DNA from: a virus
Lineage: Duplodnaviria > Caudoviricetes
IMG/VR virus record: IMGVR_UViG_3300042339_001064
Coordinates: 16,674 to 80,673 of that record
DNA length: 64,000 bases
Direction: 5' to 3' (one strand)
The first letter of the stretch is position 1. The number at the start of each line of letters is the position of its first letter. Below the pieces are notes generated by a model that did not search any database, had not been told where the DNA came from, and saw only the letters and a list, made by a program, of their open reading frames with translations. Below, piece by piece: positions 9,579-38,896 of this stretch. The position numbers and the translations under genes are program-made.

Positions 9579-9589
9579 ACATATAAATT

Positions 9590-12334: not shown

Positions 12335-12353
12335 CATTAAAATATATTAAATT

Positions 12354-13689: not shown

Positions 13690-16600
13690 ATGCCACAAGT
13701 TAATCATCCTAAATACGGAATTATAAATTTTCCTGATAATATGTCTCAAGAAGACATAAGACAAGCATTAATTAAATTAGATCAACAAGGAAATAAAATT
13801 ATACAACCTACCCAACAAAAACTTATGCAACAACAACCTGTTGCACCTAAACCTGTTGTAAAACAAGAAGAAGAACAAACTTTTTATAATCAATTAACAA
13901 ATAAAGTTTCGCAAGGTATTAAAGGAGTAACAAATTTTTTTACAGGTGAAGAAGAGCAGACTCCTCAACAAAAAATTAGTAATCAAATTCCTAATGTAAA
14001 TCAATCTAAAAGTGTAAAAGGGTATGGTCAAAGCAATATTGAAACACCTAAACCTATTAATACAAATGCTAAAGCTAGTGAACTTGCAAATGTAGGATAT
14101 AGACAAGGATCTTCTTTTGAAGAACAAAAAAGTGTTATTGACGATAATTATAATAAAGAAAGTGAAAAAGTAAAAAACAATTATTTAGCTCTTTTAAGAA
14201 TGGCTGGAGAAGAAAATCCAAGTTTAGATCAATTACCTCCTAATATAAAGTTATTATATAATAAAGATTTACAACCTATTACTGCAAAATATAACGCAGA
14301 AATAAATAAATTAAAAGCACAACCTTTAACTAATAGAAAAGGACTTATTACAGATATTAATCAAAAAAACAAACGTATTGAACAATTAAATGAAGGTATT
14401 GATTCATATACTAAAAAAGTAGAAAATCTTTCTAAACAAAATGAATTTTTAAATTTAGCAAAAGAAAATAATCCTTTAAACAAACCTTCATCAATAATTC
14501 CAATTGTTGGAATTTATAATATATATGATACATATTCAAAAAGAAAGGCAGAGATAAATAAAGCAAAAAAACAACTTGAAGGAGGAAAAAAAGATTTACA
14601 AAATTTAAAAAATTTTAATATTGATCCTATTCAAATATTAAAAAATACTCCTGCAAATGAATTACCTCAAATTACAGCTAGTTTAGAAAAACCTATAAAA
14701 AATCTATTAGAGTCTGCTAAAAAATTTATAAATTTAGAAGATGAAACCACTATTAGAGATTTAAATAAAGAACAAGAAACAAATAAAATTTGGACAGGTA
14801 ATGTTATATTTGATTGGTTTACAAATAATGTAGTAAAAAGAGAAAGAGATGTTGTAAAAGTAAAAAATTACTTGTCAGATACAAATGCAAAAGGGGCTTT
14901 AGAAAATACTACTAATTACTATTATGATAAAGTAGAGTTTAGTAATGCAGGATCTAAAAATAGATTACAACAAAAAATTGTTGAAAAAGGTTGGGATAAA
15001 GATATTAATGCATTTGATGAAAAATTTAATGCCTTATTAGAAGATTTTCCTAGTTTAAAAAATGATTCTAATAAATTAATGGGAACTATACAAAATTTAT
15101 ATAGTACTCCTGAACAACAACAAAAAGTTTTAAGTTTAATTCAAGATCCTGATTTTCAAGAAATTGTAACTAATAATGAAGCATTATATAATTTAAATGG
15201 GGCTAGAATTGGCCAGAGTTTAAAAATGTTTCAAGCTGAAAAAATTAATGAATTACAAGCTTTAAAAGTTGTTAAAAATTTAAATGAAAGACAACAAGCA
15301 GCCCAAGATAAATTAGAATTGCGATCAAAAGAATCTGGTTTATTTAGTGCTGATAGAGTAAATTATTATTTACAACAATTAGATAAAGGAAAAAGTTATA
15401 TTGCAGAATATGGTAAACAACAAGTAGGTTCATTAGCTACAACTATTAATCCAGAATCAGAATCTGCTAGAAAATTAGAATATAGTGCTGATTTATGGAA
15501 AGCTATTAATTTTGCACAAGATGAAGGAAATATTAGTCTTTTTGATAAAGGAGTAGAATGGGTAAATCTTGAAGCTGATAAAAATAATAACTACCAAATT
15601 GGTTTTAATAAATTGGGACAAGTTGTTGATGTAAAAGCTAATGATATGAGCATTTCTGTAAAAGGTTCTCAACGAGATTTAATTGAAAATTATTTTTATA
15701 GTAATAGTTCTGAATTAAAAAAGCAAGCTGGGGATATTTATAGTATGCCTGGAGGTACATCTGCTGCTTTGGGAGGAACTAGTAAAGCTATTGCAGTAGG
15801 TATTGCAGAAGAAGCTCCTACTATTGCAGCAGAAGTTGCAGCTACTATATTTACAGAAGGAGCAGCAGCTCCTTTATTAGAAGCAACTTTATTAAGATTA
15901 GGTGCAAAAGGAATAACTGCTGCAAAAGCTAGCAGAAACTTTAGTAAAATTGCAGGACAAGTTATTAATACTACATCTACTTATGCAGAGGTAAAACATG
16001 ACGTTGAAAAAAATTATAAAGAACAAGGTTTAGATCCAGGATTACTTCAAGTAATAACTACTTCAGGAGCTATATCAGCAGTTTCTCAACTTACTCCTGG
16101 TCTAGAAAATAAATATAGACAAATAGGAGCTGATTTTGTAGCAGATAGAGTAAAGAAAGAAGCAAACAATGTTTTTGTTGAAGATATACCAAAGGTAATT
16201 AAATCTCTTACAGATGATTTAGTGGATATTAAAAATCCTAGTGTAAAAGATTATTTATTTAATAAAGAATTAAGAAATTATGCAGTAGCTAGATTTAGTG
16301 ATAGAATGGGAACTGTAGCTAAATCTTTTCGTAAGGAAGGCTTACAAGAAGCATCTGAAGAAACCATTTTAGAACCTTTAGCACAAGTTTTAGCTAATGC
16401 AGCTAATGCTTCTTTAACAGGTAATGAAGAATATAATAAAGAAACTTTAAGAGATTTAGGATTTTTAGATCCTGAAACTGCTTTAATTGCAGGATTAACA
16501 GGAGGAATTATGTCTTCTGGGATAGAAGTTTCCAAAGCTAGTTCAGATTTAAATGAAACATTAGCAGCAAATTTTAAAAAAGATAATGGTTTAAATACTA

Positions 16601-19600
16601 TAAATGCATTACAAGCAGCTATAAAAGATCCTAATAAATTTAAAAGTTTATTGTCAACTTTTATTGGTAATTCTAGTCCTTCTGGAAATAGTTTAACTCA
16701 AGAAACTTATAATAATCTTATTGAGTCTTTTGATACTGTTAAAAATAATTTTGAACAAACTAAGAAAGACTTTAATTTAGATAATGATTTTATTTCTAAA
16801 TTAGATTTTGAAAATCCATTACATAAATCTATATTAGAAAGTGTAGGAGTTAATTTAAAAAATATTGAAAGTTTTAATGGTAGTAAAACTTTTGATAATG
16901 TTATTTTAAATTCAGAATTAAATAAAGTTAATAAAGAAAAAGTAGTAGCTAGTTTAGCTCAATCTTTAGGTATTCCAAATAATAATAATCAATTAGATTT
17001 AACTCCTTATTTAGATGAAAATGGATTTTTTGATTATAATAAATATATTGAAATAATAGGTAAAGATACTTTAGATGAAATAACTATTAATAATATAAAA
17101 GAATACAATAATATTGTAGGTAGAGAAAAAAGTACTAAAAATTTAATTAATTTATTTAATAAAAATTTAGGACCAATTCAAAGTCAATTTAAAGCTCAAT
17201 ATCAAACTGCTATAGAAAATAACCCTGAGTTATTAAATCCTCAAGCAGGATTTGTTAGAAGTATTTATCAACAAAATTTATTTAATAAATTAGCTAATCA
17301 AACTAGAATTGATAGAATTAATTCTTTATTAGAAATAGGGCAAGCAATTGATAAAGATAAGGAATTACGAGAAGAATTAAAGACTTTAAATGAAAATAAT
17401 AAAAGTTTAGATAAATCTTTAACTTCTATTACTGATACTTACACTAATGGATACTTTGATGCTCAAGAAAATTTAAATAATTTAGATGAAGAGTTTAATG
17501 AAATAGATAAACAATTGCAAGATAAATTAAATTCTTATTTATCTCCAGGACTTATTGATAATTTATCTGAAGAAAAAGAAAATGAAATAAAAAATTTAAT
17601 TAGAATTAAATCTGATAAGCTAAAAGAAATTAAAAAAACTCATAAAGAATTTAATTCAAGATTTAATAATGGTTTAAAATCTCAAACTTTAAATAGAAAA
17701 GCCTTAATAACTGATGCAGAAGGTAAAAGAACTGTTAAAGATGTAACTATTGATAAACAATTAGAAGAATCAATTAAAGGGGATAAAGAAAGATTAACTA
17801 AAATAAAAGAATATAGAAAAATTTTTGCTAATCTAATAAATGGTCAAGCAACTAAACAAGATTTAGATAAATTAAAAAAGAATAATAGATTATATAATAA
17901 ACAATTATTAGAAGAAACAGTCTTACCTTATTATGTATCTTTTAATAAAGAGGAATTAATACAAGCATTTGATAATGATCCTGATTTATTATTAGGTATG
18001 TTTTCTATATTAGAAGATATGGGATATGTTGGAGATATTCAAAATTATAAAAATGTTAATTTAGATACACTAACTTCTGTTGTTACTGATGGCATTATAA
18101 AGTTAAATTATAATATTAGTTTGATAAATAATAATCAAGAAAATTTAATTAATAATTTTGACCAAAAAAATGGAGCATTATTAGTTAATAATTATATTAA
18201 AACAATTGAAGAAAATTCTGCAAAAAATCAAGAACAACCTGCTGTTGAAACTCCTACTCAGTCAAGTGATAATGTACAAGATAATGTTATTAGTCTTATT
18301 GAAAAAAATAGTAAATTAAAGTCTGACTTTGATGAAGATGAAATAACAAATAATTTCTACATTATTAATGATAAAGAATATAAAAGAGTTACTTCTGTAG
18401 AAAGAGATGAGTTAAACTCTAATGAAAATTTAACTGCAGGTGCAAATGTTGGAAACTTTTTTGATTCATTAGGAAGGTTTATTTTTGGTAATTTAAATGT
18501 TACTAAGGAAAACAGTGATGTTATATTACAAGCACAATTAGATTATTTTAAAAATAACGGAATAACATTTAACTTAAAAAAAGATAGTTATGTTGAAATG
18601 TTTAATAATTTAATAGAGCAAAGAGATTCTTTAATACAAGAAGGATTTAAATTTATAACAGAAGAAAGAGTGCTTTATCATGCTTATGATGGTTTAAAAT
18701 TTATAGGAGAAGATTCAACAGGTATTAATGATAATACAATAGGTGTTGCAGGCACTATGGATATTATTGCTGTAGGTAAAGATGGTAAAGTAGATATTAT
18801 TGACTTAAAAACTATTTCAGATAATAAAGGAAAAGATACTGAAAATTTAAAAGATAAAGAAACCAATGGTTGGTCAAAACAATTAGGTTTTTATAAAACA
18901 TTATTAGAAAAAATACCATCTGTAAAAGTTAATAATACAAAAGTATTTGTTTCAAAAGTTAAATATGATATTAGTGATTTTGGTAATACAATTTCTTTTT
19001 TAAATTTTATAGAACCAAAACTTAATACTATTAATATATCTAAGTCAGCTTTAACATTAATAAATAATTATTTAAGTATTCCTAATTTAGTTATAGATAA
19101 ACCTGTAGAAATTATTACTAATACAGAAGCTATAACAGAAGAAGAAATGCCAGATTATATTTTAGAGCAACAAATGTTATTAGCTGAAGATAGTAATCCT
19201 GAGTTACCTAATAATGAAGATTTTGGTCCAGATGAATTTCAGTTAAGTCAGGCAACAGGGGTGCCTGTAACAGAAATGGAAGGTATAGTTCCTATTATTA
19301 AAACAGAAGTAATTGATTTACAAACAGATAATAATATATTTTTTACACCTGTTAATCAAACTAAAGCAGAAAATTTAGAAATTGAAATTAATAAATTAAT
19401 ATCAGATAAAAATAAAGAATTAAGAAATTTAATTGTAAATACAGAAAATGTTGATCAAAAAATAAATAAAATTACTAATAAATATAACAAATTAATTACA
19501 AAAGCTAAAAAAGAATTATTAATATTACAAGGAAAATCTCCTATACAAAAAACTAAATTAGTTAATGAATTAGTAACTGGAGATAAAATAATAATAGATA

Positions 19601-21282
19601 ATAAAGTAGTAACTGTAGTTAGTATATATCCAGGTGAATATACTGATGGTAATCAAAGTTGGTTTGAAGGAAATGAAACATTTAAAATAAATATAGAAAG
19701 AGAAGGCATAACTTCAGGAATATTTGATAATAATGAAATATTTAATCCTATTAATAGTCAAAATAGTGATGAATATAGTAATTGGGAAGTTAATTTAGTT
19801 AATGATTTAGAAAATGAAACTACTGCAGAATTTGAAATAGAACCTACTGCAGAAGAAAGTGCAAGAGCAAAGTCTGTATTTGGTACTAAACCTGTATTAG
19901 ATCCTGTAACACAATTAATTACAGGTCAAGCTAATCAAGTTAATTTTGAAACTAGTTCAAATAATGTCTTAGAAGGATTTGAAGATGAAGCTGATAGTAA
20001 TATTGTTTCTTTAACTAGAGTAGCTTATGTTAAATTTAATATTACTTATGATGAGCAAAATAACAAACAATATGATGTAAGTATTTTTAATAATCAAGAA
20101 TTAAATAAAAAGTTTAATAATAAAATATTAACTGAAACAGAGGTTGAAAAACTTTTTAAAGATAATGGATTATTTTTTAGTAATAAAATAGAGTCTAATA
20201 ATGTTTATGTACTTAAAGATATAAATAAAAAACCAATTAATTCTTTTCAACAAGAAAATATTATATCTAAAATAACTATCCCTGAATCTAGTATATTAAA
20301 TAGTATTTATGCCAATGATTTAACTAATCAAGAAGGAGAAATAGTTGTATTAGATACAGAAAATAAATACAATAACACTTTAAAGACTGAAAAAGATTTT
20401 AGAAATAATGCAGCATTAGGAGTAGTAGTAAATAATGCTTTAGTAGCAATTATTCCTGCTAATAAAGGAAATACTAGGAATGCCCAAGTAAGAAATAAAT
20501 TAACTATTACTAAGGTAGGTAATACTTTTACTGTACAACCATTTAAAGTTAAAATTAAAAAAGTTAAAAAAGATGCATTTTTATTTAATAATCAACCTAT
20601 AAGAATAAATAACTTTTTAAATAAAGTTAATGGATTTAAATCTACTATTGCTTTTGTATATGAAGTAGATAAAGTTAAAAAATTAGTTAATCCTTTTGTT
20701 AATAGAGAAGTTTCTGAATTAAATATACCTGCAGATAATTTAACTAATAATGGAGTATTTTTAATATTAGAAAAAAGTGGAGAAAATCCTATTATTATTC
20801 CTTTGCAAACTCCTAAGTTAAGAGAATTTTTTGAAGGAACACAAGAAGATTTAGAAAATATTAAAACTATTCTTAAAACTAGTATTTCTGATGTATTTAC
20901 ATCACAAGATTTACAAGGAAATTATAATGTTTTTTTAAATAGACTTAGAACTGCTTCTGATAAAAATCCAATAATAAGTCAAATTTTTAAAATTATTCCT
21001 ACAAGTATTAATGAAACATCTACTAATACATCTCAAAAAATAAAATTAGAAAATTTAAAATTAAATTTTAATTTAGATAATATTATGGATTATTTGTGGG
21101 ATACTTTAATTACATTAAATGAAAATACTAGAGACTTTTATTCTGTAGATTTAGATCCTGAGAACTTTTATGCTAATAACTCTGTTATAATTGATTATGA
21201 TAAAAATATTATAATGGATACAAAAAATAATGATATTACATCAAATTCTATCTTTAATCAAGATAATGATGTTTATTGCTAA
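13690..21282 (+). CDS. Giant ejected virion protein with a PD-(D/E)xK nuclease domain
   Basis: 2530 aa. N-terminal 'FPDNMSQEDIRQAL' motif and Ala/Gly-rich membrane-like region. Nuclease motifs 'AGTMDIIAVGKDGKVDIIDLKT' (18748-18813) and 'KQLGFY'. The single Cys is the last residue. Confidence 0.7.
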   Translation: MPQVNHPKYGIINFPDNMSQEDIRQALIKLDQQGNKIIQPTQQKLMQQQPVAPKPVVKQEEEQTFYNQLTNKVSQGIKGVTNFFTGEEEQTPQQKISNQIPNVNQSKSVKGYGQSNIETPKPINTNAKASELANVGYRQGSSFEEQKSVIDDNYNKESEKVKNNYLALLRMAGEENPSLDQLPPNIKLLYNKDLQPITAKYNAEINKLKAQPLTNRKGLITDINQKNKRIEQLNEGIDSYTKKVENLSKQNEFLNLAKENNPLNKPSSIIPIVGIYNIYDTYSKRKAEINKAKKQLEGGKKDLQNLKNFNIDPIQILKNTPANELPQITASLEKPIKNLLESAKKFINLEDETTIRDLNKEQETNKIWTGNVIFDWFTNNVVKRERDVVKVKNYLSDTNAKGALENTTNYYYDKVEFSNAGSKNRLQQKIVEKGWDKDINAFDEKFNALLEDFPSLKNDSNKLMGTIQNLYSTPEQQQKVLSLIQDPDFQEIVTNNEALYNLNGARIGQSLKMFQAEKINELQALKVVKNLNERQQAAQDKLELRSKESGLFSADRVNYYLQQLDKGKSYIAEYGKQQVGSLATTINPESESARKLEYSADLWKAINFAQDEGNISLFDKGVEWVNLEADKNNNYQIGFNKLGQVVDVKANDMSISVKGSQRDLIENYFYSNSSELKKQAGDIYSMPGGTSAALGGTSKAIAVGIAEEAPTIAAEVAATIFTEGAAAPLLEATLLRLGAKGITAAKASRNFSKIAGQVINTTSTYAEVKHDVEKNYKEQGLDPGLLQVITTSGAISAVSQLTPGLENKYRQIGADFVADRVKKEANNVFVEDIPKVIKSLTDDLVDIKNPSVKDYLFNKELRNYAVARFSDRMGTVAKSFRKEGLQEASEETILEPLAQVLANAANASLTGNEEYNKETLRDLGFLDPETALIAGLTGGIMSSGIEVSKASSDLNETLAANFKKDNGLNTINALQAAIKDPNKFKSLLSTFIGNSSPSGNSLTQETYNNLIESFDTVKNNFEQTKKDFNLDNDFISKLDFENPLHKSILESVGVNLKNIESFNGSKTFDNVILNSELNKVNKEKVVASLAQSLGIPNNNNQLDLTPYLDENGFFDYNKYIEIIGKDTLDEITINNIKEYNNIVGREKSTKNLINLFNKNLGPIQSQFKAQYQTAIENNPELLNPQAGFVRSIYQQNLFNKLANQTRIDRINSLLEIGQAIDKDKELREELKTLNENNKSLDKSLTSITDTYTNGYFDAQENLNNLDEEFNEIDKQLQDKLNSYLSPGLIDNLSEEKENEIKNLIRIKSDKLKEIKKTHKEFNSRFNNGLKSQTLNRKALITDAEGKRTVKDVTIDKQLEESIKGDKERLTKIKEYRKIFANLINGQATKQDLDKLKKNNRLYNKQLLEETVLPYYVSFNKEELIQAFDNDPDLLLGMFSILEDMGYVGDIQNYKNVNLDTLTSVVTDGIIKLNYNISLINNNQENLINNFDQKNGALLVNNYIKTIEENSAKNQEQPAVETPTQSSDNVQDNVISLIEKNSKLKSDFDEDEITNNFYIINDKEYKRVTSVERDELNSNENLTAGANVGNFFDSLGRFIFGNLNVTKENSDVILQAQLDYFKNNGITFNLKKDSYVEMFNNLIEQRDSLIQEGFKFITEERVLYHAYDGLKFIGEDSTGINDNTIGVAGTMDIIAVGKDGKVDIIDLKTISDNKGKDTENLKDKETNGWSKQLGFYKTLLEKIPSVKVNNTKVFVSKVKYDISDFGNTISFLNFIEPKLNTINISKSALTLINNYLSIPNLVIDKPVEIITNTEAITEEEMPDYILEQQMLLAEDSNPELPNNEDFGPDEFQLSQATGVPVTEMEGIVPIIKTEVIDLQTDNNIFFTPVNQTKAENLEIEINKLISDKNKELRNLIVNTENVDQKINKITNKYNKLITKAKKELLILQGKSPIQKTKLVNELVTGDKIIIDNKVVTVVSIYPGEYTDGNQSWFEGNETFKINIEREGITSGIFDNNEIFNPINSQNSDEYSNWEVNLVNDLENETTAEFEIEPTAEESARAKSVFGTKPVLDPVTQLITGQANQVNFETSSNNVLEGFEDEADSNIVSLTRVAYVKFNITYDEQNNKQYDVSIFNNQELNKKFNNKILTETEVEKLFKDNGLFFSNKIESNNVYVLKDINKKPINSFQQENIISKITIPESSILNSIYANDLTNQEGEIVVLDTENKYNNTLKTEKDFRNNAALGVVVNNALVAIIPANKGNTRNAQVRNKLTITKVGNTFTVQPFKVKIKKVKKDAFLFNNQPIRINNFLNKVNGFKSTIAFVYEVDKVKKLVNPFVNREVSELNIPADNLTNNGVFLILEKSGENPIIIPLQTPKLREFFEGTQEDLENIKTILKTSISDVFTSQDLQGNYNVFLNRLRTASDKNPIISQIFKIIPTSINETSTNTSQKIKLENLKLNFNLDNIMDYLWDTLITLNENTRDFYSVDLDPENFYANNSVIIDYDKNIIMDTKNNDITSNSIFNQDNDVYC

Positions 21283-21307
21283 ATTATAAAAAATAAATAT
21301 TAATTTT

Positions 21308-30300: not shown

Positions 30301-31627
30301 AATTATAGAAGAATGGAAAAAAGTAAATAACATTCAATATAATCCTGAAGAAATATATTCAAGAGGTCAAGAATTTGTATCTGTACTAGGGGCTTACTCT
30401 GATTTTGATGTTAATCTTATGATGCAGAATCTTCTTCAACATATAGAGGATAATGAAAAAGCTGGAGGTAAATTTGTTATATCTGCATTTACTAAACCTG
30501 TTGATAAAACAATTGGTCACTTAGAAGGTGGTGGAGGAAAAATTAAGTTTAAAATATACCCACAATCTAATGATATATTATGGGCTGCTAATACTGATGT
30601 TTATAGTGGTAGTGTTTGGGATGCTAGTGAAAAAATTAATAAAGATAAAAAATCTGAATTACTTGGAGTTAGTTATACTAAATATCCTTCTTTATATAAT
30701 GTGGGTACTGTACAACCTAATTTAGCTTCTGTTGTAGATAATTTAGCACATCATCATAATGAACTTGGTATTGCTTTAACAGGTAATAACTTTAGATTAG
30801 AATATGATGAAGATATTCCTTATACTACTAAAAAGATTATTGAGGGTATAAATAAAATATTAGACCAAAAATATGGCAAGTTAGTTAACCCTGAGATTAA
30901 AAAAGTTACAATTATACCTAATGAATTTGAATTTTGGCAACAAGATATGAATGAGGATGGAGGTTTAGATAGATTTAGAATAAGTATATTTAAAAAAGAT
31001 GATAAATGGTTTGAAGAATTTTTTGATACTTATGGAGAATCTGAAAGTGTTAGAGAAATAGATTATAATGAAGTAAAATTAAAATTTGATGAAGCTCTAT
31101 CTTCTAATTCAACTTTAACAAGAGGTAGAGGTATTCAACCAACTCAAACTAAAGATAATTTAAAAGAAAGTATTGAGAGTGTTAAGAGTAAAGTAACTAA
31201 TGAAATTGAAGATTCTGATGGAATAGGTTCTTTTGGTTATGATAATAATGGTATTAGATATGTTAAAAGTGATGATGGTACTTATTCTAAATCATCTGAT
31301 AAATTTAAAACTTGGGTAGAAATAACTGAAGAAGAGTATGAAAGTAATAAACCTAAAAGAGATATTAAACAAAAAGAATACATATCTCAAGCATTAATTA
31401 ACACTAAAATAGCAGCATTAAAAGAAGTAGCTAAAAAATATCCTAGAAGTTTAATTAGAAGTGAAGTTAAACCTGTTAAACCTTTTGATACTAATTCTTA
31501 TGAACAATTTAATGATGAATTACCATTTCAAAAAATACTTTCTACTGAAGATAAATTTTTTATTCAGTATATTAAAGAAGAAGCACTTAAAAATAATATA
31601 GATCTTTCAAAAAATAATTGTAAATAA
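21308..31627 (+). CDS. Virion-encapsidated DNA-dependent RNA polymerase (crAss/phi14:2 gp66-like) with C-terminal RNase H and zincin-like domains
   Basis: 3439 aa. 'VVYRIPTE' is followed by catalytic 'AGFDMDIDKLF' (DxDxD at 25514-25528, residue ~1403), matching the position and form of the crAss-like vRNAP DFDID motif. RNase H at ~28382-28855; HEILGH at 29150. Confidence 0.85.
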   Translation: MACYINPFPNEISQDEYLLILNTNNLYDTYLNIINNGEEGLLEFFNINKAVIDKGINQIKELRDFKAGKLTSTDVIINNPIINYFINNNINSNILKTLDKSFTEIFYKLANENNKPVSDFININDLFKLPYQEGVKSSNVLIRFLGSLNGYKNMLSNQLTTGLNNNNEVLTEYDKIYIQQTINYINSLGVFKDLNYPIISLENFKNNLRLKELINYLGRDGLFKLDNQLVEDLNNEKEDLENNIQIYEKDPLTEDPSDKISARLKLMLRGINMYDSSGNKVIKSNIELFWKPADLIQKMLIAVSNNNVHNLTIDQILDKLTVLSTQEFSILSQPISTFLKRLNALKTNNNLFNSAGPDIYTDLFLYFQQYPVGIKVLETETTIFKNKPIYINGIEVIEDIEVKSLKIQNKVDYVNAGLNRVRKDIFNNLLNSSELQNNFNTKNELILASNQSVAQLAEIIATLLSPSLTTTQKNIKEQVFNKIKQTDLKNGINFLTVLEGIINGDNILNSSIINKVYNINNDTLFPVLSPSELSEELSIINSSIAAIKNGVAYEDTDFYKKFNGDIISMSLWADYVKNASNPLSLSIFIGHKLDENIKEEYSDFTQAELLANLFNVISSGSIPTPILSDKSNIYLIDNYSLNQGALNQLNFRQDPISYFKYFISYLKIDNELNEQINNGINIGKNIDKAIAKQKLILFNPAFYEIADNEEVLEIYNTYVNGDTENKQTAEKQLIDIINKYQTKLGNDLYQKFIDTKLITYNDDLEGYYINSNLLDKTIYLKTKAGVEQLKNNIKEVAVKYYVLNTQVKLLSVGHSGFFKENDEQKRVKAIAANSKKVNLNATYKNKQIITKNSGKRIILKDIENPVVNKIAEDFFLQRLKEEKFSNEDILKKMANLFSNYTLLDGTPVYSLNSAKLDKIKEEFNIEAAPLLEKINTLKLENNLEEVALIQEDYNKILTKYSNLEKEIKFLPTKKSNTTDASSVSSLDFSKKYHVGLNMYSDNQEEAYNAELNGNYLNKFTENNFKVIKNIVYTKTKSKNSDILLPYMEKTSTDNFTAQRVFLGEEPNLYQAMIGKMFGYTFNEKNESWTYNPNNAIIDKIVYESAVKAEMPVNQNGDIVVFDLLKEIENKNIKSLEDVNNWKPEQNFEENYVIDIPITEDRLQVETPEHLEGQADIGTQIEGLISNGIDADSEFVINNKTFNGLELTNLLNQLRVNYVDKGENDLYNEFFKEDRIYDLVASLYNDREYLNLETLTPEKLPDLLSNPQFGLALVSKIQSLIKQNVVKTKINGIQFFNGVVANDKSLNILVEDVIDANGKTIKKLIFEVAVPAFSENMFKAALNSETGKLDVNLIPEELREFVVYRIPTEAMYSMFAVRIKKLLHPSSGPIIYMPEGPTNIAGFDMDIDKLFGIVKNYYSKDNKLIPISYSLEKDSNINFKEWIKENITDTDQLTLNDLFLEKSNLIEKNPDLFKERSDIKKLKEEKNKIISDLEKDLIEEYDLSGKQLSTALSRQLKNYPKYLEIKETLNTFYDSIKIEENESLKNSVKEINKQINDIYAIYKDSWKNLNVAAQLSTSQYQNLYLDIIKGVVTNEKSVNEYITGNGFQRLEDINTDLENRNTSKESKKDKLLRAQNPYRDANLVNSLNTFRAIMSGAQNIGPAAIYNQFVALNQFLKNFGIESTVGFNVKSINLLSKNQKDTEQFNIFKGLNNYVTKSGLKPNMAIAELLAQAVDNIKKDLSVPLNLQKQLVGLRSLLYITGLDENIVDRIFTDYPLVDKIIKESIESDDINRYKNNIFKYNLYDLSEKPSKFIFLDKDEKININLELLNKKFKPGNLVSDILSSDISEEEIVYFLHEMLELANELSDIINTINYYQKGLGKNFASLIFSYDKTKQLLNSTLSNNFSIDLSNSFIEYKLQKLVEITENIYSNFNINLEDPNFNFFKQYFQRLNNSKYLGYLFNANLSSNLYLNLLAEFGSAENLKKAYFKEVSDLKLIFGQNTIIEKTGDNYVKSDVQNLNLNILNSIIRFVDNNPFFEENIKNITILKQLYPFDIQFLGQSESFNSSLNPKNIIDIMSIDNKTLYYGGNQDIITEDNVFSAQEITQKLFFINMVQSGLFSGKNNKGRSNVFDLLFLDNIILQNFLLYINKPYSYLLNNSVVNPEILRNSSNVLSAYTDFILLNNPEGFNKYTRSLEDTYLLDNNTKKLIKNIFVNSTPITLNNNYLDVYVIDKSIILPTDDPKKLVKLGNFLNSTYITFNDNGSKKLFKLVYSLGNNLLYKNLGIIGGNLLSNEFSGKINPIAFNFLDEVISNLGITRSNIESSDVNLANQVIGTWSKPAIQTPVNTTVETISTPQNPIKIYSDGSDIKGTGKVGFGAVYEYNNKEYALTGTEEGFEVKDLQKMFPEAKFSNPTMEMLALVRVLQSFSNNSEHLSIYQDYKGAVNYNELWNYSEGSQQRESKPWNAKESYIKYLVAQAVDAIKKIETNGGSVKINWVKGHAGNKMNDRADFYAKSRENFNNLTEPLSKTFIEPTTQPSTDVKTKQEEQSKLFQLPSTEGQVASEKTIRDLAARMSDRIGMPVKFESDRTKQYKGKIENNIAYVNLAYATLDTPIHEILGHPIIRAIKGKNKGYVVKGSTITDKATNKTYIVKEVTEDYDFVIEENGKDITVDSSTFEWNTNAISQLYQNLLKELEYGKGKEVLDRIKRDYKEYEKNLTAVKSEINRIQNIISKGYLYEIDGNLFNKKDAIEYSIDNNYDFEEEIEFDSYANLEINLLRQQQILEEKNSVSKSNVAEDFIIDDKEIRIVYNLEKVQEEAIVELLGMMTAEKLDNVKDGKLISLLKRLLKEMKQFIRSLINQKEVEIDKLPDNMTINDLADLLAYSNSKLILPGYEVEYTTPDNMKFKTYQEASNHISQLAKNVKDVDLDNISLLKEKPKYKIGDYFGQYEKGFVEQEGLNKIETQEEADYLNSKEYRLQEPDTIKNFIEKNKEYEQSKEIIEEWKKVNNIQYNPEEIYSRGQEFVSVLGAYSDFDVNLMMQNLLQHIEDNEKAGGKFVISAFTKPVDKTIGHLEGGGGKIKFKIYPQSNDILWAANTDVYSGSVWDASEKINKDKKSELLGVSYTKYPSLYNVGTVQPNLASVVDNLAHHHNELGIALTGNNFRLEYDEDIPYTTKKIIEGINKILDQKYGKLVNPEIKKVTIIPNEFEFWQQDMNEDGGLDRFRISIFKKDDKWFEEFFDTYGESESVREIDYNEVKLKFDEALSSNSTLTRGRGIQPTQTKDNLKESIESVKSKVTNEIEDSDGIGSFGYDNNGIRYVKSDDGTYSKSSDKFKTWVEITEEEYESNKPKRDIKQKEYISQALINTKIAALKEVAKKYPRSLIRSEVKPVKPFDTNSYEQFNDELPFQKILSTEDKFFIQYIKEEALKNNIDLSKNNCK
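28382..28855 (+). other. RNase HI domain embedded in the vRNAP ORF
   Basis: IYSDGS (D), NPTMEMLA (E), IYQDY (D), WVKGHAGN (H) and NDRADFYAK (D): the full RNase HI catalytic set in the correct order. Confidence 0.85.
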
Positions 31628-31636
31628 AATAAATAT

Positions 31637-34600
31637 ATGTCATTAGCCTGCGATTTAAATATAAATATTGCCAAAAGAGGTATTTTAAAAGGAATTTCTA
31701 ATAAATATATTCCTGAAGAATATGAAAATAATCAATCTGATTTTAAAGATGATGAATTACAAATACCCCTTAAAAATAAAAATAAAGATGAAGTAGCAGA
31801 AATATTTAAACCTATTTTATCAACTATAGAAAAAGACTATAAAGGTAATATAAAAGCAGAAATAGTTAAAAATTCTATACTTGATCCTTTTTATATAAAA
31901 TTTAATGTTAATAGAAATTATATTCTTGACCAGTTACAACTAACTGTAAAAGATATAAATGAACTTCAAACTAAAGAAACTATTAATACTAAAATTGTAG
32001 ACCCTTTGTTAAATGTACAAAAAGGGCTTACAGATCCCTTAATTAGACAAAAATATTTTTCTGATGGAGATACTACTACAGATAAAGAAGTATTAACTAA
32101 GATTGCAAATTCTAGTCACCCTTTAAGTGGATTAGCTAAACAATTAATTCCTTTTAGTAAAGGAATAAAATTTAATTTATTACCTATTAATTATATTAAT
32201 GTTAATAATAATAAATCTTCTGGAGTATATAAAAGTTTTGGAATAAATAATGAAGAAATAATTGAAATTGCAGAATTTGCAAAGTTTAGAGGTTTAGGGT
32301 CTGAACCTACAATTATTCATGAAATTCTACATGGATTAACTTTTAATTGGTTAGATTCTGTAAATCAATCAGATCCATTATATAAAGAATTTGAAAGACT
32401 TTATAATGAAACAATTTCAAAAATAGGTATTGCTAATAATTATGGTTTAACTAAAATTGAAGAATTTGCAGTAGCTTTATTTACAGATGAAGAATTTATT
32501 AATAAAATTAAAGAATTACCTTCAGATAATCCTACTAAATATGTTAATTTATTTGAAAATATATTAAATACTTTATTAAAAGTATTTAATATAACTGATT
32601 CTAAAAGTACTTTATATACAGATGCATTTGCAATTGTTTCAAATATAATTAATATTCAAAAAGAATTAGAAAACATTTTTAATATTCAAAAAGAAATAGA
32701 AGAAGCTTTTTTACCTACTCTTGATGAATTTGAAAACTTACAAGATGATATAGATAATTATTATATTGATGATTATTCAGAATATACACCTGAACTTCCT
32801 GAAGATACTTTTCAAGAAAATGTTTTAGAAGAAAAAACTGTCATAGAAAGTAAATCAACTATAAATCCAAATTTAATTCCAGATAATATTGAAGAACAAT
32901 TTAATGAGTTTGAATCTTTAAGAAATAAAGATGCAGAAACTACTGAAGAGTTTGACAAACAAATTTTATATTCTTTAATATTACCAAATGTTAGTAAAGA
33001 TAAATTCTTTGAAATATTTTCTCAAAACAATCCAGAAGAATTTAATAAATATAGGCAAAAAGAAGTTAAAAGAATTATTAATAACTTTGCAGAAAAATTT
33101 GGAATTACTATTGAGCAAATTAATCAATACCAAGATAGATATGTTTTAGCTAATAATAAAACATTAAGTTATAATGGTGTAGCTAATTTAGCAAATAAAA
33201 CTATTAAATATTTAGAAGGAGATGAGGCTGCATTAACAGAAGAAGTAGCTCACTTTATGGTAGCTATGTTACCTAAAACAAGTCCTGAGTATGTTAATTT
33301 AAAAAATTATATTAGTAGAACTCCTGAATATCAACTTTATTATGAATCTTACTTAGAAGTTTATAATGGAGATGTAGATAAAACTGAGGAAGAAATAATG
33401 GGTAAGGTTGTAGCTAATAGTTTATTAGGAGTTACAGAAAATGTACCTTTATCTTTAAAAAGTCTTATTACTTCAATTTTAAACTACATTAATAACTTTT
33501 TTAATCCAGAGTATAGAAAAGCTTTTCAAAGAAGTGTAGATAATATTAATCATTTATTTTTTACAGAAAATTTTGATACTAATTTTTCTGAAGCTAATAT
33601 AACTTTTGATGAATTATATAGTTTAAAATTTACAACTTCTAATGATGAAAAAGTATTTAATTCTTCTACAGATCAAATATTAAATAATATTTTACAAAAT
33701 TTAAAAAACCAAAGACAAAGGTTTATTGAAAATAAACAAACTGATTTAATTAAAAGTATTGATACTTTAATTGATATAATTACAGAAAAAGATTCAAATA
33801 TTGATAATTCTGATAGAATTATTAATTATATACAAATGTCTTTATTAGAAATACAAAAAGTTGAACAATCTTTAAATAATTTTGAAAAAAGTGGTATTTT
33901 ACAAGATTTAGAAAAGAAAAATTTTAATAACTTAACAAAAGAACAACAAGAAGCTCAAACTCAAGAAGATAGAGCTAACCATTTACAATATGTAGCTGCA
34001 GCTATTACAACTTTACAAAATTTAAATTCATTAATTACTTTAATTGAATGGAATTTTAAAGGATTTAATAATACTTTTCAATCTTTATCAGATTATAATA
34101 AAATTATAGATACTTTACCTGATTCTAATGAAAATAAAATATTTTCAGAAGCATTAAAATTAACAAAAGCTACATATAGAGATGCAAAACTTGGAACTAT
34201 AAAAGGAGTTTATCAAGATCTTTCTCAAAAATTATTAGATGTAACTTTTAAAACTTTAAATACTCAAGATCAAAAAAACTTTTTAGAATTAACACAAACA
34301 AATTTAACTCCTAATGTTAAAAAACAAGAAGATGTAAATAATGATATATCTCCTTTAGGTACAGTTAAAGATCTTATTACAGGAGAATTTAATATATCTT
34401 CTTTTAAAGAAAATATAATGCCTTTAACTTTCCAAAAAGATGTTTATTTAAGATCTGTTGACAATGCTAATGCAGTTTTAAGGCAATTTGCATTAATGGC
34501 TTCAGCAAAAGATGTCCATGAATATAATTTATTTCAAGAAAAATTAAATCAATTAGGTGAATTTAATGAAACATGGCTTTCAGCAAAAGATGAAAAAGGT

Positions 34601-37600
34601 AAACTTACATTTAAGTTATTGCAAAAATATAATTTTAAAGTATTTAAAAAAACTTTATCTCAAAAAATTATTAAAGATAATTTAGCAACTATTATAAATC
34701 AAAATGTTGTATTAGATGAAGTAGAAAATAAAGATCCTAAAATATTAAAATCTATTATTAATAAAAAATATAATTCGCCAAATGCAATAAAAGATGATAT
34801 TACTCAATTATATATTAATAAAAAAATATCAAAAAGTTTATTTTTATTTTTAAATAATTATATTAATGGCTACGAAACATTATATACTTTAAAATTAAGT
34901 GAACAAAATAATTTATTATCTAATAATAATCAAAATATATTACAAAAATATAAAAATGATTATATATCTCAATTAGAAAATAATTTAGCAAATTTAAATT
35001 TTAATAAAAAATCTTTACCTTATTTTAATAATAAATTTGCTTTTACTGAAAATACTATTAGTGCATCACAACTAGCAAGTGTTGTTCAAAATATTATAGA
35101 TAATAAGAAAGCTGCTTTAATTAACAAATTTGTAGTAGTTCCTAAAACTATAAATGGTTTTGAAAATCCTGTTTACACAAATCAAATGGCTTATGTAGAA
35201 GGATTAATGAATTATTTTAAAAATAATATAGGGTATTTACAAGATATTGAAGGTGAAATTAAAACTGATAATATTAATTTTTTAATGTTAGGTGATGAAT
35301 ACTTTTTTAATTTATCAGATAAAAAATCTTTAGCAGGAATTAATTTTGTAGACAATGATTATATTAATTTAGAAAAACTTGCTCAATCAAATAATCCTAA
35401 AGAAAGAGAAATAGCAACATTAAAATTAACTGCTATTGAAAAAATAAAACAAGATAATTTAAAACATAATACGCCTTCTAATGATTTAGGAGGAGTATTA
35501 ATAAATAATAGTGCTGCATTTTTAAGTAATTCTAAAGAATATAGAGAATTTTATAATAGAATATTTAGAATGGCTTTTCCTTTAGCTTTAACATTAGCAT
35601 CACCAGTTAATCCATTAGCTAGTGTTATGTTATATCTTACTTATATAGGAGCATTAGATACTTTAATTTATAAACCTTTTTATTTTTTAAAAAATGATAC
35701 AGAATCTAATTTATTAAAAAGAGCATATAATGCTTGGAAACTAAGTTTATCAGAATTTTTTAACAGAGATTTAAGAGAAAAAAATATAGAAAATAATGCT
35801 GAATTAGAAAAAGAAGTTGCAAAAGGTTATAAAAAAATAATTTCTAACTTAATTGAAAATATAAAAAATAAATTAAATAAAAATAGAATTAATGATAATA
35901 TTCTATTATTAGGAGAATATAAAATTCCTAAACCTTTTGAAGTTGAAAGAAATAATAGATTATTATTATCTACAGATTTTTTATCTAACCAAAAAAGCAT
36001 TACTCAAGCTAGATATAATTATGAAACAAATATAAGATGGGAATCTTGGATTAGAATGACTGCTGATTATAATGAAACAAGGGCAGGTGTAACTAATTCA
36101 AATATTATTAATACAATTAAAGATAGGTATTGGTTTAATAAATTTTTTAAACCAACAAAATCATTAAGTGCTTTAAGGTTTACTTTAGGAATAATATCTA
36201 GTAAATTACTAAAAGGAAACATACAATCAGCAATAATGAACTTAACTATTGGTCAATTTGGAGTATTTTTACATACAAATCCTAGTACTTTTGCTAAAAG
36301 TGTTATTAATATGTTTACTCATAATACTGAAATGTTATATATGGGTACTAATTTAAACAATGTTGTAAATAGTTTTATAGGTAATTTTGGGAATCCTTCT
36401 AATTCAACTACTAGATTATCTTTTTTTGATGCTTTAAAAAATATGTTTACAGGAAGAGATACTAATGTAGCAAAATATAATAATAATCTTATAAAGCATA
36501 TTTCAAAAAATTTAAGAAAAAATAGAGGTACAGGTTTTACAGAATTTGATGAAAGTGAATCTATCTTAACAAGGGAATTTGGTTTAACTAATACTCAAAT
36601 GCTTAATAATCTTGGTGAAAAGTTTATTGAAGAAAATACAATATTTCAATATTTAAATAGTAATCCAATTATAGATGAAAATGGAAAGCCTATAAAAAAT
36701 TTAAAAAAATATTTAAAAATTGAAAATGGTTTAATAGTTTTAGATAGAACTAAATTGCCTAAGAATTTATATTTAAAAAATACTACTAATTTAGCTTATA
36801 AAAATTATTATAATTTAGATATAGATTCTAATGTTAATATTGAAAAAGCTAGTCCTAAAGATTTAGGAATTAACCCTTTAACTGATGTAGAACTAAATGA
36901 ATTTTTAAATATTACTATGTCAAATGATATTTCTAATTTAATGGAAAAATCTCAAGGGGTGTATAATATTTTTAATAAAGCTTATTGGAGAAATACTGGA
37001 ATAGGATTAATATTATTTCAATTTAAAGATTATGTATTAACTTCATTAACAAATACTATAGGTTCTAGAAAAATTAAAAATAATTTTACTAGTTATGAAA
37101 CAAGTATTTTAAATTCTTTAACTAAGGCTTTTGATAGAATGGCTATTTCAGGTTATAGATTTATTGATAAAGATGCTAAATTTAATAAAGATGTAGATCA
37201 AAATTTATTAATTTTAAATAATGTATCTAAAATACAATTTTTTAGAGAATTAAATTTTTTAAGAAATCGTTTAGTTTCTTTTTTAACTCAATCTGAAGGT
37301 AAAATAAATAAAAAATTAAAAGAATTAGCTAATAATAATGAAAAATTTAGAAAAGATACAAATAGAAAAACAAGTTCTAATATTTTATTAAATTTACCTA
37401 TAAATTGGTATTTAACAAATATTAAAGATAAACCAATTGATGATGTTAATTTTAAAATATCTGGAGAATTTAATTTAGATACTAATAATCCTAATTTTAA
37501 TAAACAACTTAATTATATTAAAAGTTTAATTGATAAAAAATTTAAAACAAAAGAAAATTTTACTCAAGCTGATTTAGATATATTAACTAAATTTGATATT

Positions 37601-38395
37601 GATCAAAATTATTTAAACATAGTTCAAGGTTATTTAAAATTAAAATTAAGTTTAACTGCAGATGTAGAATCAATTAACAAATTACTTAATTTTGGAGTTT
37701 TAAATTTAGGACTTATATTATTGTTAGGGTTTTTAAAATCTTTAGAGTGGCCAGAAGATGAAGAAGATGAAGAAGGGAAAAAAATATTAAATCTAAAAGA
37801 TTGGTTTTTTGCAACAGGAGAATATTCTTTATCTAGTTTTCTATTAAACTATGTTCCTTTTGATATTGATGATGCTTATGGAATAGATTATAAGAAATTT
37901 ACTGTAGAAGCTTATAAATTTGCACCTTTTATATCTCAGATTAAAGAAATTTTAGAACCAATTACTACTATAGGTTATGAAGAAGAAATGAGAAAAAATA
38001 TTACTGAAGAAAAAAAAGAATTTTTAATAACAGTAGCAGAAAAAGCAGGAAAAAAAGAAAATAATAAAATAAAATTACCTCTTTTAAAGCCTAAATTAGT
38101 GTATAATGAAGAAACAGAGGAAAATGATTTAATTCTTGGATCAACATTATTAAAAAATAAATTAATAGGATTAGGTATAAATAAAGAAATTTTAAATAGT
38201 TTTTCTTCTTTTGCAGAAGATAAAGAAAAATTAAAAGAAAGAAAAAATAAAAAATTTATTGAATTATTATCTAAAAAAGCTATTGATAATAGATCATATA
38301 AATTTGGAGATAGAGATCCTAATAAAAGTGAAGAAGACAAGGAAGAACAAGATGAAATGTTACAAGAACTTGATGAAACATTACAAGATTTATAA
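31637..38395 (+). CDS. Giant ejected virion protein with zincin-like metallopeptidase domains and TM segments
   Basis: 2252 aa. HEILH (32318-32332) with downstream 'EEFAV'; a second, degenerate EEVAH motif (33239-33253) with 'EEEIMGK'. Hydrophobic helices and 'GLILFQFKDY' near the C-terminus resemble membrane-channel ejection proteins. Confidence 0.65.
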   Translation: MSLACDLNINIAKRGILKGISNKYIPEEYENNQSDFKDDELQIPLKNKNKDEVAEIFKPILSTIEKDYKGNIKAEIVKNSILDPFYIKFNVNRNYILDQLQLTVKDINELQTKETINTKIVDPLLNVQKGLTDPLIRQKYFSDGDTTTDKEVLTKIANSSHPLSGLAKQLIPFSKGIKFNLLPINYINVNNNKSSGVYKSFGINNEEIIEIAEFAKFRGLGSEPTIIHEILHGLTFNWLDSVNQSDPLYKEFERLYNETISKIGIANNYGLTKIEEFAVALFTDEEFINKIKELPSDNPTKYVNLFENILNTLLKVFNITDSKSTLYTDAFAIVSNIINIQKELENIFNIQKEIEEAFLPTLDEFENLQDDIDNYYIDDYSEYTPELPEDTFQENVLEEKTVIESKSTINPNLIPDNIEEQFNEFESLRNKDAETTEEFDKQILYSLILPNVSKDKFFEIFSQNNPEEFNKYRQKEVKRIINNFAEKFGITIEQINQYQDRYVLANNKTLSYNGVANLANKTIKYLEGDEAALTEEVAHFMVAMLPKTSPEYVNLKNYISRTPEYQLYYESYLEVYNGDVDKTEEEIMGKVVANSLLGVTENVPLSLKSLITSILNYINNFFNPEYRKAFQRSVDNINHLFFTENFDTNFSEANITFDELYSLKFTTSNDEKVFNSSTDQILNNILQNLKNQRQRFIENKQTDLIKSIDTLIDIITEKDSNIDNSDRIINYIQMSLLEIQKVEQSLNNFEKSGILQDLEKKNFNNLTKEQQEAQTQEDRANHLQYVAAAITTLQNLNSLITLIEWNFKGFNNTFQSLSDYNKIIDTLPDSNENKIFSEALKLTKATYRDAKLGTIKGVYQDLSQKLLDVTFKTLNTQDQKNFLELTQTNLTPNVKKQEDVNNDISPLGTVKDLITGEFNISSFKENIMPLTFQKDVYLRSVDNANAVLRQFALMASAKDVHEYNLFQEKLNQLGEFNETWLSAKDEKGKLTFKLLQKYNFKVFKKTLSQKIIKDNLATIINQNVVLDEVENKDPKILKSIINKKYNSPNAIKDDITQLYINKKISKSLFLFLNNYINGYETLYTLKLSEQNNLLSNNNQNILQKYKNDYISQLENNLANLNFNKKSLPYFNNKFAFTENTISASQLASVVQNIIDNKKAALINKFVVVPKTINGFENPVYTNQMAYVEGLMNYFKNNIGYLQDIEGEIKTDNINFLMLGDEYFFNLSDKKSLAGINFVDNDYINLEKLAQSNNPKEREIATLKLTAIEKIKQDNLKHNTPSNDLGGVLINNSAAFLSNSKEYREFYNRIFRMAFPLALTLASPVNPLASVMLYLTYIGALDTLIYKPFYFLKNDTESNLLKRAYNAWKLSLSEFFNRDLREKNIENNAELEKEVAKGYKKIISNLIENIKNKLNKNRINDNILLLGEYKIPKPFEVERNNRLLLSTDFLSNQKSITQARYNYETNIRWESWIRMTADYNETRAGVTNSNIINTIKDRYWFNKFFKPTKSLSALRFTLGIISSKLLKGNIQSAIMNLTIGQFGVFLHTNPSTFAKSVINMFTHNTEMLYMGTNLNNVVNSFIGNFGNPSNSTTRLSFFDALKNMFTGRDTNVAKYNNNLIKHISKNLRKNRGTGFTEFDESESILTREFGLTNTQMLNNLGEKFIEENTIFQYLNSNPIIDENGKPIKNLKKYLKIENGLIVLDRTKLPKNLYLKNTTNLAYKNYYNLDIDSNVNIEKASPKDLGINPLTDVELNEFLNITMSNDISNLMEKSQGVYNIFNKAYWRNTGIGLILFQFKDYVLTSLTNTIGSRKIKNNFTSYETSILNSLTKAFDRMAISGYRFIDKDAKFNKDVDQNLLILNNVSKIQFFRELNFLRNRLVSFLTQSEGKINKKLKELANNNEKFRKDTNRKTSSNILLNLPINWYLTNIKDKPIDDVNFKISGEFNLDTNNPNFNKQLNYIKSLIDKKFKTKENFTQADLDILTKFDIDQNYLNIVQGYLKLKLSLTADVESINKLLNFGVLNLGLILLLGFLKSLEWPEDEEDEEGKKILNLKDWFFATGEYSLSSFLLNYVPFDIDDAYGIDYKKFTVEAYKFAPFISQIKEILEPITTIGYEEEMRKNITEEKKEFLITVAEKAGKKENNKIKLPLLKPKLVYNEETEENDLILGSTLLKNKLIGLGINKEILNSFSSFAEDKEKLKERKNKKFIELLSKKAIDNRSYKFGDRDPNKSEEDKEEQDEMLQELDETLQDL

Positions 38396-38515: not shown

Positions 38516-38896
38516 TTAATAATACTCATCTTTATAGTCATCAAAGCAATCATCAAACTCAGCATAGTTTGTAAAAAGTTCTTCCCCTGGCTCAATATTT
38601 TTAAGTGCTATTGTAACATCTTTAGTGTTATCTAGATTAGGGGTATAACTATGATTTAAAAAATTTGATAAATCACAAGAAGAATAATAATAATTATCTT
38701 CTATCCAAGCATATTTATTAAAATATTCTTGTTGAGCATCGGGCATTTGTTTTACTTTATCTATAGAAATTTTAATATCTACTCCTTCTTCAAACTTCCA
38801 TACTATAGAATCTTTTGGTATAAATTCTGTAGCAAATAAACCTAACCCCATTTTAGGATTAGTAGCTACTTTAACTTCTGTTTTAAATAAAAACAT
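38516..38896 (-). CDS. SET-domain protein (lysine methyltransferase fold)
   Basis: GLGLFATEFIPKD, FLNHSYTPNL and IALKNIEPGEELFTNY are canonical SET motifs; no post-SET region. Confidence 0.85.
   Translation of the reverse strand: MFLFKTEVKVATNPKMGLGLFATEFIPKDSIVWKFEEGVDIKISIDKVKQMPDAQQEYFNKYAWIEDNYYYSSCDLSNFLNHSYTPNLDNTKDVTIALKNIEPGEELFTNYAEFDDCFDDYKDEYY

Follow-up and report, generated by a model that had tools for sequence, protein, structure and literature searches.

Cysteine (Cys) suppression has been described for the ejected proteins of phage N4 and its relatives (N4 gp50, DEV gp71-gp73), and the accessible text of that source proposes passage through the periplasm as the reason (PMC11445570). 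In cyanopodophage A4, the available part of a cryo-electron microscopy report describes a disulfide between gp27 Cys1715 and gp26 Cys5 in the virion pre-ejectosome (PMC12002296, PNAS 2025), where it pins a helix into a pentameric folded ring. Among crassviruses, cargo-block proteins of phi14:2 and crAss001 were detected in virions by mass spectrometry, according to the phi14:2 record notes and the accessible text of the crAss001 atlas (PMC10172136), and the crassvirus RNA polymerase (RNAP) carries the DFDxD motif of multisubunit RNAPs. The present analysis concerns three consecutive giant open reading frames (ORFs) in a stretch of 64,000 nucleotides (nt), hereafter the window, which covers positions 16,674 to 80,673 of the IMG/VR virus record IMGVR_UViG_3300042339_001064 (Caudoviricetes). 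An original prediction, made by reading the window itself, held that the three encoded proteins contain only four Cys, all at the termini that face a neighbouring gene product, and that the proteins may be chained head to tail. The interpretation favoured here, with a probability of roughly 65%, is that these facing terminal Cys form inter-protein disulfides in the virion and so join the first protein, the RNAP and the last protein of the crAss-like cargo set into a covalent chain.

Exact translation and counting revealed 4 Cys in the 8221 residues of the three giants, namely one at the very C-terminus of the first protein, Cys3 and Cys3438 in the middle protein and Cys5 in the last, as had been predicted. 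Internal Cys, which had been named beforehand as evidence to the contrary, numbered 0 in all three, and the outer ends of the set (the N-terminus of the first protein and the C-terminus of the last) also proved to be free of Cys. The genes, codons and domains concerned are listed below.

13690..21282, plus strand: first protein of the set, 2530 amino acids (aa), gp47-like; the sole Cys is the last residue
21277..21279, plus strand: TGC codon of Cys2530, followed by the stop codon (exact translation)
21308..31627, plus strand: middle protein, 3439 aa, virion RNAP orthologue with RNase H and a C-terminal module; Cys3 and Cys3438 only
21314..21316, plus strand: TGC codon of Cys3 of the middle protein, invariant in 12 sequences
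25514..25528, plus strand: DMDID, residues 1403-1407, occupying the position of the DFDxD catalytic motif (motif scan, inside the BLASTP matches)
28382..28852, plus strand: RNase H domain, residues 2359-2515 of the middle protein (PF00075, E 1.3e-12; phrog_531, E 1.5e-20)
28964..31537, plus strand: conserved module, residues 2553-3410 of the middle protein, equivalent to residues 59-855 of the relative P0024
31619..31621, plus strand: TGT codon of Cys3438, penultimate residue of the middle protein (exact translation)
31637..38395, plus strand: last protein of the set, 2252 aa, gp49-like, with HEILH at residues 228-232; Cys5 only, C-terminus without Cys
31649..31651, plus strand: TGC codon of Cys5 of the last protein (exact translation)

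The background Cys frequency was taken from 20 ORFs on the minus strand (90 Cys in 6064 aa, 1.48%). At this frequency 122 Cys would be expected in 8221 aa, and the Poisson probability of four or fewer was approximately 1e-46. Base composition was rejected as the cause of the depletion because TGY triplets were common off-frame (103-178 per giant gene) and nearly absent in frame (1, 2 and 1). The probability that four Cys, if placed uniformly, would all lie no more than 5 residues from the four facing ends was 3.5e-11, and the probability that each of the four 5-residue end segments would hold a Cys at the background frequency was 2.7e-5. Further, the starts of the middle and last proteins were backed by the N-termini MACYINPFP and MSLACDLNI, which are conserved in homologues. 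The terminal Cys could still be pictured as a by-product of a DNA-level feature at gene junctions (a promoter, a terminator or a coupling signal), as an artefact of misplaced starts or as a chance result, and the short junctions of the window (25 and 9 nt) would suit a DNA-level origin. The two probabilities above argue against chance, and a DNA-level origin is contradicted by related genomes, in which the Cys are kept with genes on opposite strands and across gaps of 400-720 nt containing a homing endonuclease gene, while Cys positions and neighbouring codons vary. This explanation is refuted as far as sequence comparison allows and retains virtually no probability.

The identity of the three giants was assessed by BLASTP. 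The middle protein matched crAss001 gp50 (E 1.7e-24) and phi14:2 gp077 (E 8e-7), and DMDID at residue 1403 lies inside these matches, aligned with DFDVD 1483 of gp50 and DFDID 1361 of gp077, which supports the virion RNAP label that had been assigned to it; columns G1401-K1408 of this stretch were invariant in 12 relatives. The last protein matched the zincin-like crAss001 gp49 (E 1.7e-9) and carries HExxH at residue 228, like phi14:2 gp076, a motif found by regular expression only and without a Pfam match. The first protein matched crAss001 gp47 weakly (E 8e-4), and its C2530 is an invariant column. PHROGs and Pfam searches gave no family for the first or last protein, save a sub-threshold PD-(D/E)XK nuclease match in the first giant (window positions 18679-18918; E 6.8e-4, 20.1 bits against a cut-off of 22 bits); the stretch contains invariant acidic and lysine columns among 17 relatives, and the relative P0137 carries a precomputed PF12705 match. 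Sequence searches of the PDB returned RNase H only, and a tblastn search of the phage collection with the conserved module gave no match. RNase H is replaced in the close relatives P0002-P0012, whose RNAP ends near residue 2340 and continues into other C-terminal extensions, including a helicase in P0011/P0012, with a conserved tail ...EDFxSxPPC[VI]N. Precomputed Pfam matches in the giant-protein relatives P0013-P0120 comprised AlkB-like PF13532, helicases PF13604/PF05970, PF13671, PF18760 and HATPase PF02518, and such varied fused enzyme domains fit a modular 'polyvalent' cargo.

Conservation was first assessed for the middle protein, for which a search gave 219 matches; the best 120 were listed, and after removal of the query itself 119 homologues of 1911-5808 aa were scored, a terminal Cys being one within 10 residues of an end. 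Among these best 120 of 219 matches, a terminal Cys was present in 113 of the 119 homologues, at both ends in 24, at the N-terminal end only in 79, at the C-terminal end only in 10, and at neither end in 6. The N-terminal Cys occupied residue 3 (41 homologues), 4 (39), 5 (18), 6 (3) or 7 (2), and the C-terminal Cys lay at -1 to -4. Inner Cys amounted to 35 per 321,950 inner residues, with none in 100 of the 119. The outer members of the set showed a strict polarity. All 16 first-protein homologues had a C-terminal Cys (-1 or -2) and none an N-terminal one, all 23 last-protein homologues had a Cys at residues 3-5 and none a C-terminal one, and each of the two families contained one inner Cys in total.

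Within the best 120 of 219 middle-protein matches, a weak C-[IVP]-N pattern followed the N-terminal Cys in 44 of 103 homologues and could represent a recognition signal, as would be wanted if the terminal thiols served some chemistry other than linkage (for example acylation, redox switching, or signalling for packaging or processing). No signal peptide or lipobox accompanies them, though, and the preceding residue is free (A, S, T, N, K, R, F, H, P); moreover, such chemistry leaves the matched C- and N-terminal Cys pairs at breaks unexplained, and it is regarded as highly improbable. Two specific candidates were also rejected. A lipoprotein (signal-peptidase II) reading of MSLAC and MAC failed for want of a signal peptide and of any constraint on the residue before Cys, and a split-intein or trans-splicing reading failed because Cys in such extreme terminal positions leave no space for intein halves.

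Gene junctions were analysed in 25 viral contigs that encode the conserved module, which were scanned for plus-strand ORFs. A scripted tally took consecutive Cys-poor ORFs no more than 1500 nt apart and scored a Cys within ten residues on each side. Left out of the tally were duplicate junctions (L010, L016, L017), pairs separated by over 1500 nt, ORFs whose translations contain ambiguous residues (the first one of L008 and a 546-aa one of L022), and L011 and L018, contigs that show no junction. A facing Cys pair was present at 28 of 28 unique scored junctions, and the untallied first ORF of L008 showed a two-sided junction by eye. Chains of three to four members occurred in L006, L007, L012, L013 and L015, small members of 99, 127 and 199 aa carried Cys at both ends, and the last giant lacked a C-terminal Cys in every locus showing its end. 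ORFs lodged between chain genes (GIY-YIG, NinG, ferritin, DUF5856 and amidase) contained Cys internally but not at their ends, which fits proteins that do not belong to the set.

GIY-YIG homing-endonuclease genes were located between consecutive chain genes in six related contigs, at the following positions.

L002 1715-2257: GIY-YIG gene between chain genes
L007 10944-11669: GIY-YIG gene between chain genes
L008 11935-12591: GIY-YIG gene between chain genes
L014 32-748: GIY-YIG gene between chain genes
L015 10869-11612: GIY-YIG gene between chain genes
L017 9136-9678: GIY-YIG gene between chain genes

Other junction inserts were NinG (L022), ferritin (L025), DUF5856 (L004) and amidase (L015), and it seems that selfish or accessory genes settle at the breaks between giant genes.

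Comparison of split and fused forms allowed the same protein segments to be followed with and without a break. The conserved module occurs in three forms, as the C-terminal part of the RNAP in the window, as a free protein, and, in many further relatives, fused into the last giant at its N-terminal end; when free-standing (L002, L006, L007, L008, L013, L014) it has Cys at both ends. A segment of about 120 aa stands alone in L025 with Cys4 and Cys-2, whereas the P0142-type protein, in which it is fused to the last protein, retains a single Cys (residue 4), the site of the former junction being free of Cys. In Flavobacterium phage Fpv1, gp33 (4401 aa) joins the first protein to the RNAP and has one Cys, at -2. 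P0081 (4536 aa; module, RNAP and last protein) retains Cys3 only, and P0014 (4948 aa; first protein, module and RNAP) has no N-terminal Cys, a Cys at -2 and two inner Cys. P0028, with 0 Cys in 5502 aa, might be a fully fused chain. In the forms compared, a Cys pair thus appears at every polypeptide break and is missing where the chain is continuous.

Named phages were examined as annotated. crAss001 and phi14:2 were taken by accession, and eight more were chosen for taxonomic spread among 60 of 136 matching records. The rule was obeyed, with 12 facing pairs, in phi14:2, crAss001, DAC15, Carjivirus communis (the original crAssphage), Rudgehvirus, cr1_1, cr109_1, cr50_1 and Fpv1, the last six of which have one break with a facing pair each. 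The triplets phi14:2 gp078-gp077-gp076 (g067-g066-g065 of Drobysheva et al.) and crAss001 gp47-gp50-gp49 are orthologous to the giants of the window and have the same terminal-Cys pattern. In phi14:2, the sole Cys of gp078 (1797 aa) is its last residue, the crystallised RNAP gp077 (2180 aa) has Cys3 and Cys2179, and gp076 has Cys3; in crAss001, the sole Cys of gp47 lies at -3, while gp50 and gp49 each have Cys5; DAC15 follows the same scheme as crAss001. Orthologous triplets, like hundreds of metagenomic relatives, thus keep Cys at adjoining termini, as the original prediction had suggested they should be checked for. The RNAP of the window differs from those of the cultured crassviruses in its greater length (3439 aa), its fused RNase H and its possession of a module encoded separately in relatives.

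The first protein of crAss001 and of DAC15 is encoded on the opposite strand, yet retains its C-terminal Cys. The rule is therefore not a DNA junction motif, and it concerns protein ends (first ..C, middle C..C, last C..) rather than gene adjacency. The chain had been proposed to run in gene order, a wording that this comparison qualifies. In Intestiviridae the order of modules also differs, since the set begins with the zincin-bearing protein and ends with the polymerase fusion, and the end rule is unchanged. crAss002 fits the rule if gp33 starts at Met33 (MSCTPSNP), 32 codons past the annotated start; the annotated start (L030 13088-13186) is probably mis-called, too early. A terminator-like hairpin was observed in the 170-nt gap upstream of this gene. 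The giants of cr109_1 (L035) contain in-frame stops under translation table 11 (70 in gp53 and 33 in gp52), as expected of a stop-recoding crassvirus, and keep their terminal-Cys pair. Judged by sequence, the terminal-Cys rule is kept across the whole phage order.

These phages also bear on the partners of the terminal Cys. The residues might join no neighbours within the set and instead form homodimers (same end to same end), circularise the middle protein, or anchor the proteins to some other part of the virion; the accessible text of the crAss001 atlas (PMC10172136) describes each protein as probably packed in several copies, and unpaired lone C-terminal Cys do exist in Intestiviridae (Carjivirus gp47 at -2; crAss002 gp30 at -8). 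Other partners would leave several regularities without a reason, in that the first protein has no N-terminal Cys (0/16) and the last no C-terminal Cys (0/23), with none likewise in the ten named phages, that both Cys arise together when a gene is split and both disappear on fusion, and that all 28 scored junctions are two-sided. Such partners are considered very unlikely. The lone Cys were observed in small cargo-like proteins upstream of the Intestiviridae giants (L029 gp47/gp48, L030 gp30, L033 gene49), at -2, -6, -8 and -11, in an RCGG-like context and with no facing N-terminal Cys in the next protein.

Among the described systems, A4 provides the nearest functional parallel. In the A-4L record, the sole Cys of gp27 (1717 aa) is residue 1715 (-3) and that of gp26 (1114 aa) is residue 5, so that A4/A-4L resembles the window in having consecutive co-oriented ejection genes with the only Cys near the C-terminal end of one product and near the N-terminal end of the next. 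It differs in its family (Saffermanviridae), in having one pair only and in the absence of an RNA polymerase from the set. Comparison of gp27 and gp26 with the window and crassvirus proteins gave no detectable similarity (best BLASTP E 0.097), and the resemblance is best read as a likeness in working, not family membership. Schitoviridae resemble the window in that their giant virion RNAP and ejection proteins are almost free of Cys. They differ in having a single giant polypeptide without terminal Cys, which is consistent with there being no break to bridge, and their polymerase is of a different kind, whereas the crassvirus enzyme has the DFDxD motif. No N4-like match was obtained in the general PHROGs, Pfam and PDB searches, in which no direct comparison with N4 gp50 or DEV gp71-73 was included. 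The ejected T7 proteins gp15 and gp16 contain 0 Cys, like the bodies of the window proteins; unlike the latter, T7 gp14-gp15-gp16 show no facing terminal pairs, and gp14 has a lone Cys2.

A published description of the terminal-Cys rule for crassviruses could not be found, with supplements and most subscription journals beyond reach of the search. In their accessible texts, the crAss001 atlas (Bayfield 2023, PMC10172136) lacks the word 'cysteine' and mentions disulfides only in tail and portal-vertex proteins, and the phi14:2 RNAP preprint (Drobysheva 2020, 10.1101/2020.03.07.982082) contains neither 'cysteine' nor 'disulfide', while reporting that the three RNAP-block proteins are fused in some phages. 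The available text of the A4 paper states no general rule and no Cys depletion, the word 'cysteine' occurring 0 times (PMC12002296). The belief that such linkage had gone undescribed therefore held for crassviruses and not for phages generally, given the A4 gp27-gp26 disulfide.

Under the disulfide interpretation, the bodies of the giants would be kept free of Cys, as in other phage proteins ejected through the tail and the host envelope, and in the oxidised virion each C-terminal Cys would be bonded to the N-terminal Cys of the next protein. The linked first-middle-last product would be essentially linear, a 'virtual polyprotein', and topologically a single thread because the Cys lie within a few residues of the ends; the thiol-free bodies would leave no chance of wrong links. 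Evolution would treat the Cys pair and the peptide bond as interchangeable, with a pair at splits and none at fusions. The bonds would form after lysis, in an oxidising medium, and the consequences would include 1:1:1 stoichiometry, stability of the packed cargo, possibly an ordered passage through the tail, and reductive release in the host cytoplasm. This interpretation accounts for the polarity, the two-sidedness, the split and fusion rule and the A4 structure. The comparative evidence for the originally proposed chain is strong and A4 supplies a structural precedent; from these we infer the crassvirus bond itself, its partners and its role in ejection. crAss001 virions hold structural disulfides in the tail and portal vertex, as described in the accessible text of the atlas (PMC10172136), which counts in favour of disulfide formation.

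Several observations weigh against this interpretation. The gut habitat of crassviruses is anoxic and the cytoplasm in which they assemble is reducing; therefore the bond would be possible only after release, or only in air. Six of the 119 scored middle-protein homologues (best 120 of 219) have no terminal Cys, although some of them look like shortened gene calls. The only one-sided case observed was in L008 (5546-9113). There a 557-aa member has Cys5 and no C-terminal Cys; next come a 629-aa ORF, which encodes a YkuD L,D-transpeptidase domain and contains two Cys pairs, and a 942-aa member with Cys3. With a gap above 1500 nt, this pair of members was unscored in the tally of 28. crAss001 gp50 has one inner Cys, and its C-terminal Cys lies as far in as -9. 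Inner Cys are more frequent in the giants of gut Intestiviridae, with 7 in Carjivirus gp44 and 6-7, depending on the start, in crAss002 gp33. The N-terminus MSLACDLNI is preceded by differing C-terminal motifs, NNCK in the window, ...DNCK in L025 and the PPCVN type in close relatives, so that specific recognition of the facing peptides is not evident. The A4 bond, which clamps a folded ring, does not by itself support a thread. Finally, gp47, gp49 and gp50 are not resolved in the crAss001 maps according to the accessible text (PMC10172136).

A bridging metal ion such as Zn, in place of a disulfide, could join the same neighbours in a clasp that holds in a reducing cytoplasm. The pairing and the split and fusion rules are equally compatible with such a clasp, reducing conditions at assembly and the anoxic setting of gut phages suit it well, and acidic residues stand beside some of the Cys (NQDNDVYC). 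Each end nevertheless offers a single Cys, no His or further Cys is conserved close to it, neither the flanking residues nor the spacing from the end is constant, and the sole solved example of such a pair, in A4, is a disulfide. Metal clasp and disulfide are indistinguishable by sequence, and the clasp is rated unlikely on the points just given; the rivals that invoke other partners or no link fit the polarity and the split and fusion rule poorly. A wider form of the disulfide interpretation, held tentatively and at somewhat less than even odds, is that the injected enzymes are packed as one covalent thread in crassviruses and, through convergent evolution, in at least one cyanopodophage, with disulfide-healed breaks, a thiol-free body, end-first exit, 1:1 passage in fixed order and reductive release, leaving the genes free for splitting, fusion, shuffling and invasion by homing endonucleases.

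The remainder of the window showed an AT-rich (GC 20-34%), crAss-like layout. On the plus strand, a muzzle-like gene is followed by three Cys-free ORFs and then by the three giant ORFs.

514..4401, plus strand: muzzle-like tail protein, 1295 aa, 17 Cys; PF25729 crAss_MUZ_C, E 4.8e-4, below the Pfam cut-off
4401..13676, plus strand: three ORFs (1725, 914 and 440 aa), putative cargo, 0 Cys each

The muzzle-like ORF matched phi14:2 gp082 (BLASTP E 7e-8), and its 17 Cys bear out the expectation of a Cys-rich tail protein, just as the three following ORFs were indeed without Cys. These ORFs gave no family match; they are putative cargo by position and by synteny with crAss001 gp45-gp46, and they stand outside the linked set because they have no terminal Cys. 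The crAss001 cargo protein gp45 (390/398) and phi14:2 gp080 (369/378) contain two Cys each and no more, 8-9 residues apart, and the three small cargo ORFs of the window contain none. The cargo block is placed as in Crassvirales, downstream of the muzzle (the Pfam match of which lies below the cut-off) and cargo genes, and a minus-strand replication and nucleotide module converges on it, with ribonucleotide reductase, deoxynucleoside monophosphate kinase, AAA_24, a DnaB-like helicase, family A polymerase (PolA) and an SNF2-type helicase. Just beyond the cargo block, the minus strand encodes a SET-domain protein (38516-38896; E 2.6e-13) and a spore-photoproduct-lyase-like protein (39557-40429; E 5e-22). 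A thiol oxidoreductase gene was not found among 30 minus-strand ORFs of the window, those below 84 aa being only partly scanned, and near-identical DNA to the window was absent from the phage collection searched.

Crassviruses are the most abundant phages of the human gut, and the terminal-Cys rule bears on how they deliver approximately 0.7 MDa or more of protein, including an RNA polymerase, ahead of their DNA. In annotation, the rule marks true starts (such as that of crAss002 gp33), tells the first, middle and last giant ORFs apart and separates members of the cargo from inserted selfish genes. It can be tested directly in the cultured phages phi14:2, crAss001 and DAC15. If the disulfide interpretation is true, the chain would represent a natural protein concatemer that can be released by a change of redox state, and the links would explain the free fission and fusion of the giant genes.

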